Below are positions 25,367-25,564 of a DNA stretch of 64,000 bases, piece after piece. Origin of the DNA: Spirulina sp. (GTDB lineage: Bacteria > Cyanobacteriota > Cyanobacteriia > Phormidesmidales > Phormidesmidaceae); the NCBI GenBank assembly GCA_044070495.1, contig JBIPSI010000012.1, positions 32,001 through 96,000 of the forward strand, in the 5' to 3' direction. The notes under the pieces were generated by a model. That model was given only the letters and a program-made list of their open reading frames with translations. It was not told where the DNA came from and ran no database searches. Each line of letters starts with the position of its first letter. Within the stretch, counting starts at the first letter, position 1. Made by a program: the position numbers and the translations under genes.

Positions 25367-25564
25367 CTATGCCTGACGTCCTGGCCCATCACAGGGGAAT
25401 GATGAAAAGCCAAAATCTTTTTTGGGCGGTTCAGCACGAGCAAAAGGATTGGCAAATAGCAACACTCCACCTGAGATAGACTGTGACTGCTCTGGGGTGA
25501 GGGGCTGCCAAGGCGCAGCCTTTGAAGACTGAGCGTTAGTCGATTTGCGATGGTGATATTTCAT
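25367..25564 (-). CDS. Double-glycine leader peptide P1 (PsaB FX-loop-like)
   Basis: MKYHHRK...WQPLTPEQSQSISGG | VLLFANPFARAEPPKKDFGFSSFPCDGPGRQA. Confidence 0.8.
   Translation of the reverse strand: MKYHHRKSTNAQSSKAAPWQPLTPEQSQSISGGVLLFANPFARAEPPKKDFGFSSFPCDGPGRQA

Follow-up and report, generated by a model that had tools for sequence, protein, structure and literature searches.

The window analysed here, a 64,000-nucleotide stretch of a Spirulina sp. genome (contig JBIPSI010000012.1), carries on its minus strand a short gene, P1 (P0001; 25367..25564), encoding a peptide of 65 residues. By its sequence, P1 is a ribosomally made precursor peptide whose core is a mosaic of two segments, one matching the C-terminus of ATP synthase subunit c and the other matching the FX loop of the photosystem I (PSI) protein PsaB. 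Its anatomy is that of the double-glycine peptides exported by peptidase-containing ABC transporters (PCATs), and we infer that it is exported and cleaved by the same route. P1 belongs to a wider class: double-glycine peptides with mosaic cores, linked to an exporter and an AraC-family regulator, occur in at least seven cyanobacterial genomes.

P1 joins a double-glycine leader to subunit-c and PsaB segments

The P1 open reading frame (ORF) starts at an ATG with GAGG located 7 nt 5' of it. Residues 1-33 form the leader (25466..25564, minus strand) and residues 34-65 the core. Double-glycine leaders span about 15-35 residues with GG, GA or GS ahead of the core, an arrangement that P1 shares in its GG form, with G32 and G33 present in all four members of its family. 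W19, Q20, L22, E25-Q28 and I30-G33 are invariant in the alignment of these four members. In the consensus for such leaders, positions -4, -7, -12 and -15 are hydrophobic and a position near -8/-9 is acidic; P1 agrees at three of the four hydrophobic positions (Ile -4, Leu -12 and Trp -15), has Ser at -7, and has Glu at -9. An NCBIfam profile scan found no curated leader model matching P1. Two neighbouring peptides, pE and pF, have leaders that are paralogues of the P1 leader.

The core opens with the subunit-c piece (residues 34-42; 25439..25465, minus strand), which contains the LLFANPF motif and is identical to the C-terminus of the genome's own subunit c at eight of nine positions. In other peptides of the class, the same C-terminus forms the C-terminus of the peptide or the entire core. 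The PsaB-type FX-loop segment follows at residues 48-63 (25376..25423, minus strand) and differs from the native loop by an extra Ser, a Tyr to Phe replacement, and the retention of the first FX Cys only. The 16 residues quoted for it in a first-pass annotation of the window are the exact translation of these coordinates, and the codons given there for DGPGR are likewise correct (GAT GGG CCA GGA CGT in P1 versus GAT GGT CCT GGA AGA in P6, a neighbouring peptide with a second FX-type loop).

When P1 was compared with all six reading frames of the 5.3-Mb genome, the top match beyond its own cluster was psaB, in both copies, with 15 of 18 residues identical and one gap (E = 8.6e-5); psaA was the next match after psaB (E = 0.014). 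With blastp-short against the 21,183 ORFs of the same genome, the P1 core scored 44.8 bits on PsaB. Shuffled cores, 40 in each of two runs, reached at most 29.9 bits in one run and 33.3 bits in the other, and none attained 44.8 bits. Judged by sequence comparison, a likeness of P1 to PsaB beyond chance is confirmed.

The likeness is confined to a motif. Pfam PF00223, which describes an 11-helix domain of roughly 700 residues, matched P1 at E = 0.0015 with 17.2 bits, against a gathering score of 23.3 bits, and only residues 42-63 aligned, to profile positions 528-548 of 711. TIGR01336 gave 16 bits against a cut-off of 921 bits. Because P1 lies below these family cut-offs, it is best described as copying a motif of PsaB and not as a family member or homologue. 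Nor does it offer what an FX-type [4Fe-4S] cluster requires, namely four Cys from two chains, two per chain in FPCDGPGRGGTC: P1 ends two residues past the Arg with the first Cys only, and P6 has Ser and Val at the Cys positions. In the genome itself (G000), psaA and psaB occur as two complete pairs (C22:20227-24690 and C30:836-5447) whose FX regions are identical; genome G061 has one pair.

At the end of the gene (25358..25375, minus strand), Q and A are followed by a TAG stop, two sense codons and an in-frame TAA. This downstream TAA lies at the same codon distance past the invariant Arg as the stop of the P1 relative P0009. The DNA alignment to the syntenic cluster L026 ends at window position 25379. 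We infer that the TAG is a premature stop through which the second Cys was lost. Since P1 stops early and has one Cys left, it looks like a decayed or divergent, truncated allele, a worn member of its family. Just past the P1 stop, between P1 and pF, lies an 8-bp hairpin with a T-run (25326..25349, plus strand); hairpins of this type are no more numerous than expected from shuffled sequence.

Three relatives of P1 keep the second FX cysteine

P1 has three relatives, P0003 and P0004, found by a word-index search, and P0009, found by an exhaustive search. P0003 and P0004 match PsaB without a difference over their last 18 residues, both FX Cys included (61.7 bits, E = 3e-13), and in both genes the stop codon immediately follows the second Cys. 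Both also exceed the PF00223 cut-off of 23.3 bits, with 29.1 and 29.5 bits, respectively. Between the two, the leaders differ at 10 of 33 positions and the cores at 0 of 33. In P0009 the ring residues are altered, yet two Cys remain eight residues apart, which is the native spacing (C-x8-C). The nine residues SFPCDGPGR are invariant in all four family members, while the second FX Cys is present in P0003, P0004 and P0009 and lost in P1.

Further searches around this family gave little. The first 47 residues of P1 produced no match below E = 0.06 outside their own genome among 60 related genomes, 36 of them from the same genus. A metagenome scan with the leader alignment of the family found no relative, and a word-index search with that alignment returned the three known members and nothing further. 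Several candidates were set aside: L027, a Phycisphaerales contig, as a 19-residue chance match; P0013 and P0014, about 1,660 residues long with low-complexity repeats, as non-members (P0014 from its table entry); and P0015 as a PsaA/PsaB sequence. A structure prediction of PsaC with two 4Fe-4S clusters and the P0003 core scored 0.01 against a mark of 0.34, a result that is neutral on binding.

The copied segments are old and maintained at the peptide level

Codon comparisons separate the peptides from their native counterparts. P0003 and psaB of the same genome (L026/G061) share 18 codons in which 14 of 54 bases differ without a single amino-acid change, and one Ser is encoded by TCA in one and AGC in the other. 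In a neutral simulation of 14 random changes, none of 200,000 trials kept the P0003 protein segment. In a peptide from genome G207, all 11 residues of a PsaB segment are reproduced (11 of 11) and 9 of the 33 bases differ; here 1 of 200,000 simulations kept the protein. The subunit-c and phycocyanin copies likewise diverge from the native genes at synonymous sites. The FX peptide of genome G087 retains FPCDG although PsaB of its own genome reads FACDG; this psaB (L074) encodes Ala for Pro before the first FX Cys, an unusual change in a motif that hardly varies.

The window and its syntenic counterpart L026 are 83-89% identical in DNA. Between the two, dN/dS was 0.27 for P1, 0.36 for P6, 0.22 for pB, 0.33 for pH and 0.56 for pA, compared with 0.07 for the exporter. 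Because the codons have diverged without amino-acid change, the copies are, on this evidence, of long standing and kept by purifying selection that acts on the peptide sequence. The P0003 comparison in particular supports the long-standing selection that had been proposed earlier for this PSI site, and the codon comparisons rule out recent DNA duplication or gene conversion as the source of the copies. With synonymous sites saturated, descent from psaA/psaB fragments and convergence look the same, and the codons speak neither for nor against the two separate acquisitions suggested in the first-pass annotation.

P1 is PsaB-type and P6 is PsaA-type

The first-pass annotation assigned P1 to the PsaB type and P6 to the PsaA type, and separate NCBIfam profiles for psaA (TIGR01335) and psaB (TIGR01336) bear this out. 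All four members of the P1 family scored higher on psaB than on psaA (16.0 versus 10.6 bits for P1, 30.5 versus 20.0 for P0003, 30.5 versus 19.5 for P0004 and 17.9 versus 11.5 for P0009). In the P6 family, none of the five members scored lower on psaA than on psaB, with 22.6 versus 17.5 bits for P6 itself; two of the five are marginal (14.9 versus 13.9 and 10.0 versus 9.8). Derivation of P1 and P6 from each other with no A- or B-specific signal, the outcome that would have spoken against two types, does not apply, as their leaders are unrelated and their profiles differ. Of the FX peptides found elsewhere, that of the metagenomic cluster L031 is PsaA-type and that of G087 is ambiguous (33.7 versus 31.4 bits).

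P6 (P0002; 24021..24284, minus strand) has 87 residues and combines the start of subunit-c helix 2, with its IRGT motif, a PsaA-type FX loop and an end containing HExxH. Both Cys of its FX loop are replaced, and none of the five P6-family members has a Cys in the loop. Its last 14-16 residues (24021..24062, minus strand) form the HExxH stretch, which weakly matches eCIS_core/DUF4157 (E = 0.0031) and also matches several proteins of its own genome at E 0.03-0.5. L031 contains a peptide whose core begins in a similar HELTH stretch.

Mosaic peptides in other genomes

The PSI-site account given to P1 and P6 at first proved too narrow. Across the class, the segments copied are conserved stretches of abundant proteins and come from PsaA, from PsaB, including parts other than the FX loop, and from subunit c, phycocyanin beta, EF-Tu, HU, S10, OprB porins and pilin. 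The L031 cluster, on metagenome contigs, was found with a DNA pattern of an FX loop followed by a stop and has leaders different from those of the window. Segments found in its cores include a C-terminal PsaA-type loop that has both Cys (54.1 bits), HU residues 1-14 (41.8 bits), the end of subunit c, placed at the peptide C-terminus (37.5 bits), an EF-Tu-like start, and an HExxH stretch.

Using the AraC gene as a marker in 400 sampled genomes of the taxonomic class, we examined the 29 best loci and found peptide arrays at six of them. At all five extended loci, an exporter-like ORF of 714-715 residues, judged by its N-terminal sequence, adjoins the regulator. Cores at the AraC-marked loci match PsaB 531-541 (11 of 11 residues), PsaB 556-573 (17 of 18, E = 3.7e-13), PsaB 652-662 and PsaB 677-687, as well as subunit c 61-72 (12 of 12) and the last 14 residues of subunit c (14 of 14). 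Others match the S10 start, the coiled coil and C-terminal strand of OprB porins, and a pilin helix. Native counterparts of the copied segments were identified by Pfam, and the matches concentrate on a small number of proteins.

Of 45 cores, a set that contains orthologous pairs and in which peptides of other genomes were compared with the proteins of this genome, 22 outscored all 40 of their own shuffles. The 99th percentile of 1,800 shuffles, 31.6 bits, was exceeded by 20 of the 45, where about 0.5 would be expected. The EF-Tu, HU, phycocyanin, S10, porin and pilin copies went undetected by Pfam at E up to 10 and were detected solely by short-query BLAST against the genome's own proteins.

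Copies of native termini often keep the register of the original. Those of N-termini start right after GG, with phycocyanin beta 1-13 aligned to core residues 1-13 and HU 1-14 to core residues 1-14, while residues 1-15 of EF-Tu-like cores align to EF-Tu 2-16. Methionine aminopeptidase generally removes the start Met before Ala and keeps it before Phe or Asn; by this rule, the cores reproduce mature N-termini. Copies of C-termini, from subunit c and porin, stand at the peptide C-terminus in several cases, with P1 and pE as exceptions in which the subunit-c piece stands at the start of the core.

Two further features recur around these arrays. A protein of the beta-lactamase family (PF00144-like) lies beside the arrays of L026 (14568..15959) and L031 (35..1063) and is missing at the window counterpart. 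A core start with GCLAWS recurs in three distant clusters (L069 10563..10775, L070 10951..11205 and L031 1428..1595); its lone match, to an unannotated 92-residue ORF of G000, is weak (E = 0.18).

Sister peptides and neighbouring genes in the window

P1 is one of at least nine small ORFs with double-glycine leaders that follow one another on the minus strand (23408..26147). At one end, pA (68 residues; 23408..23614) belongs to a family whose member in the distant genome G064 copies PsaB 677-687 and 652-662; the window pA itself has no significant match in its own genome, as 33 of 40 shuffles reach its score. Next to it, pB (about 91 residues; 23646..23921) combines the phycocyanin beta start, a stretch resembling the porin coiled coil, and a terminal IRGT motif of subunit c. 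Directly after GG, its core opens with a copy of phycocyanin beta residues 1-13 (36.3 bits, E = 6.6e-4). Two more double-glycine peptides lie beyond P6: pC (66 residues; 24340..24540), with no significant native-protein match, and pD (92 residues; 24576..24854), with a weak match to the NCBIfam 'CTB family bacteriocin' (E = 0.046).

The core of pE (61 residues from its ATG; 24862..25047) consists of a copy of the subunit-c C-terminus and a C-terminal stretch of 12 residues, which shows a borderline resemblance to the C-terminus of an M50 peptidase. The core of pF (51 residues; 25119..25274) resembles the EF-Tu start. pF stops about 20 residues short of its L026 counterpart, which has a Cys pair at its C-terminus, and the window sequence past the stop can still be aligned in frame. 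At the other end of the row, pH (59 residues; 25968..26147) has a two-Cys core of about 27 residues that is near-identical in this genome, in L026 (9624..9806) and in the distant G064 (L071, 11579..11752). No native counterpart of the pH core was found, the best candidate being a seven-residue identity in a YgjP-like metallopeptidase that is not significant. All of these sister genes are on the minus strand.

The genes expected of a PCAT system, a C39 ABC exporter and a membrane-fusion protein, are both present in the cluster. The exporter (715 residues; 27368..29515, plus strand) contains Peptidase_C39 (E = 3.9e-36), ABC_membrane and ABC_tran domains, and the HlyD-family membrane-fusion protein (455 residues; 19168..20535, minus strand) matches HlyD_3 (E = 1.9e-17). 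An AraC-family regulator (26472..27371, plus strand), 44% identical to the AraC protein of L031, precedes the exporter. On the other side of the peptide row lies a PatA/PatG-family subtilisin-like protease (643 residues; 21432..23363, minus strand) with S8, PatG_D and PatG_C domains, which scores 736 bits on TIGR03895 against a cut-off of 421 bits. Further out, the region 11946..18957 contains a glycosyltransferase-EAL-receiver fusion of 891 residues and an exosortase EpsH-family protein, and additional glycosyltransferases occupy 30144..33406. These genes suggest an exopolysaccharide or biofilm neighbourhood.

Proposed mechanism and alternatives

We favour, tentatively and at slightly under an even chance, a function in which P1 and its kin are exported and, by mimicry, compete with native segments. 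The C39 domain would remove the leader, the peptide would be exported, and the mature peptide would act as a molecular mimic whose copied segment competes with the native one for its partner. The contest would take place in neighbouring cyanobacteria, as with a bacteriocin, over subunit assembly, a cofactor or the insertion machinery. The FX loop might then be the specific part and the hydrophobic subunit-c piece a carrier or a membrane-active module; in the intact relatives, the Cys pair probably closes the FX ring by a disulfide.

A number of observations weigh against this function. Export and cleavage are deduced from the leader and the neighbouring genes alone. Most of the targets (FX loop, EF-Tu, HU, S10 and phycocyanin) lie in the cytoplasm or face it, and the uptake route that an exported peptide would need is not visible in the cluster. 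The producer itself carries the same invariant targets, and no immunity gene was identified in the cluster. The P1 truncation and the premature stop of pF indicate that parts of the cluster may be decaying. The EF-Tu, M50 and window pA matches are individually weak, the orthologous pairs among the 45 cores mean that the counts overstate independence, and the comparison of foreign peptides with the proteins of this genome favours the detection of conserved segments.

Signalling is an unlikely alternative, in which pheromone-like exported peptides would imitate pieces of abundant proteins set free by lysing kin and push neighbours into a protective or biofilm state. Some cores have just 9-10 residues, the subunit-c C-terminus alone, which is the size of a pheromone; the copied N-termini are in mature form, as in released proteins; the AraC regulator is always adjacent; and exosortase, glycosyltransferase and EAL response-regulator genes lie close by. 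Passages of two papers (PMC6363468, PMC10986499) describe double-glycine leaders and C39 exporters serving Gram-positive peptide pheromones as well, and part of a third (PMC4997328) describes secreted GG-motif proteins that enable biofilm formation in Synechococcus elongatus. However, the 14 neighbouring ORFs scanned include no sensor kinase or receptor, dozens of distinct cores would require many receptors or one very broad one, and internal membrane-buried segments, such as the subunit-c helix and the PsaB helices, are odd as soluble signals. The same biofilm precedent, as described in that part of PMC4997328, could also suit extracellular structural or amyloid-like building blocks of a matrix, a role proposed for other GG-motif proteins, with borrowed hydrophobic segments as sticky or beta-prone material. 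Such segments do recur (subunit-c helix ends, pilin helix and porin C-terminal strand) and many peptides finish in hydrophobic residues, but a matrix role leaves unexplained why the Gly/Pro-rich FX loop with its cysteines and the charged N-termini of the EF-Tu, HU and S10 type are kept exactly, as well as the terminus-to-terminus register, and we consider it quite improbable.

Metal or Fe-S binding, in which the Cys of two FX-type peptides would jointly coordinate a [4Fe-4S] cluster or some other metal, is very improbable. The intact relatives keep two Cys at eight-residue spacing even where the ring residues have changed, as in P0009, and both Cys are likewise present in the peptides of L031 and G087. 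Yet in this genome the single Cys of P1 and the Cys-free loops of the P6 family leave no four-Cys A/B pair, and Fe-S binding by P1 itself, raised in the first-pass annotation, is therefore unlikely now that its second FX Cys appears lost through truncation. An FX-type cluster would fare badly on ABC export into an oxic medium, the 14 neighbouring ORFs scanned showed no gene for Fe-S assembly, and a conserved Cys pair in a secreted peptide is more simply read as a disulfide. Chance resemblance, or neutral psaB debris in a small ORF, is hardly credible: the short match of 16-18 residues, the sub-gathering Pfam score and the truncation of P1 would fit it, but the own-genome E value and the shuffles speak against it, as do relatives identical at 18 of 18 residues, synonymous saturation without amino-acid change, and the recurrence of the theme in independent assemblies.

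Beyond the competing-mimic function proposed for P1, cyanobacteria might encode a dedicated, exporter-linked arsenal of "patchwork mimics" that carry exact copies of termini, cofactor-binding loops or assembly interfaces from highly conserved and abundant proteins (photosystem I, the ATP synthase c-ring, phycocyanin, EF-Tu, HU, S10, porin and pilin) and that act on other cyanobacteria as dominant-negative assembly poisons or as false damage signals; we regard this generalization as possible but doubtful. Were it true, the invariance of the copied sites would leave targets unable to escape by mutation.

Relation to known systems

The closest known systems are the C39-exported double-glycine peptides, which include class II bacteriocins, microcins, competence pheromones and cyanobacterial clusters (PMC3140520). 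As there, a short GG-leader precursor accompanies a C39-ABC exporter and HlyD, with several precursors per cluster; unlike there, short copies of conserved proteins of housekeeping and photosynthesis make up the cores as mosaics. A term search of the available text of that 2011 survey of cyanobacterial bacteriocin clusters returned none of six relevant terms. EbfG1-4/PteB of Synechococcus elongatus PCC 7942, as part of PMC4997328 presents them, are likewise small secreted GG-motif proteins that depend on a peptidase-type exporter; their biofilm role is demonstrated, and the likeness of the present peptides to them is by description and not by sequence.

With the FX loop of PsaA/PsaB (PF00223; TIGR01335, TIGR01336), the P1 family shares SFPCDGPGR in every member, and two relatives match at 18 of 18 residues; P1, in contrast, has 65 residues, no transmembrane core, one Cys and scores below the family cut-offs. 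Cyanobactin pathways have a PatE-like precursor, whose core stands between recognition sequences for the proteases, and usually a heterocyclase. A PatA/PatG-family protease adjoins the peptides, as in these pathways, whereas the leaders here are of the double-glycine type, the L031 stretch lacks a PatA/PatG-type protease, and the 14 neighbouring ORFs scanned contain no heterocyclase. Darobactin is a heavily modified ribosomal peptide that imitates a beta-strand signal and blocks the outer-membrane insertase, its one known target. The present peptides resemble it as secreted ribosomal peptides imitating a conserved native segment, and some sisters end in the OprB C-terminal strand; they differ in that no modification enzymes besides proteases are seen and that many native segments are copied.

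In the literature, the 12-residue FX motif was not found as a word, and its parts appear solely in papers on PSI or on motif statistics. The term 'CTB family bacteriocin' turned up in genome or transcriptome papers alone, and a concept search returned only reviews, with no description of such peptides. The export system is of a known kind, and the mosaic content of the cores is apparently undescribed.

Short PsaA/PsaB motif matches in small ORFs, already precomputed as PF00223 in public collections, are on this evidence selected features and not gene fragments, with P0003, P0004 and the G087 and L031 peptides as the intact FX peptides and P1 as a worn one. If these peptides act by copying invariant segments, they would be natural interfering peptides, a mode of antagonism or signalling undescribed for cyanobacteria. 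They could then serve as ready-made probes for photosystem I, the ATP synthase c-ring, the phycobilisome, the pilus and outer-membrane assembly. If cyanobacteria do encode an arsenal of such copies, P1 and its relatives would be its PsaB/FX member.

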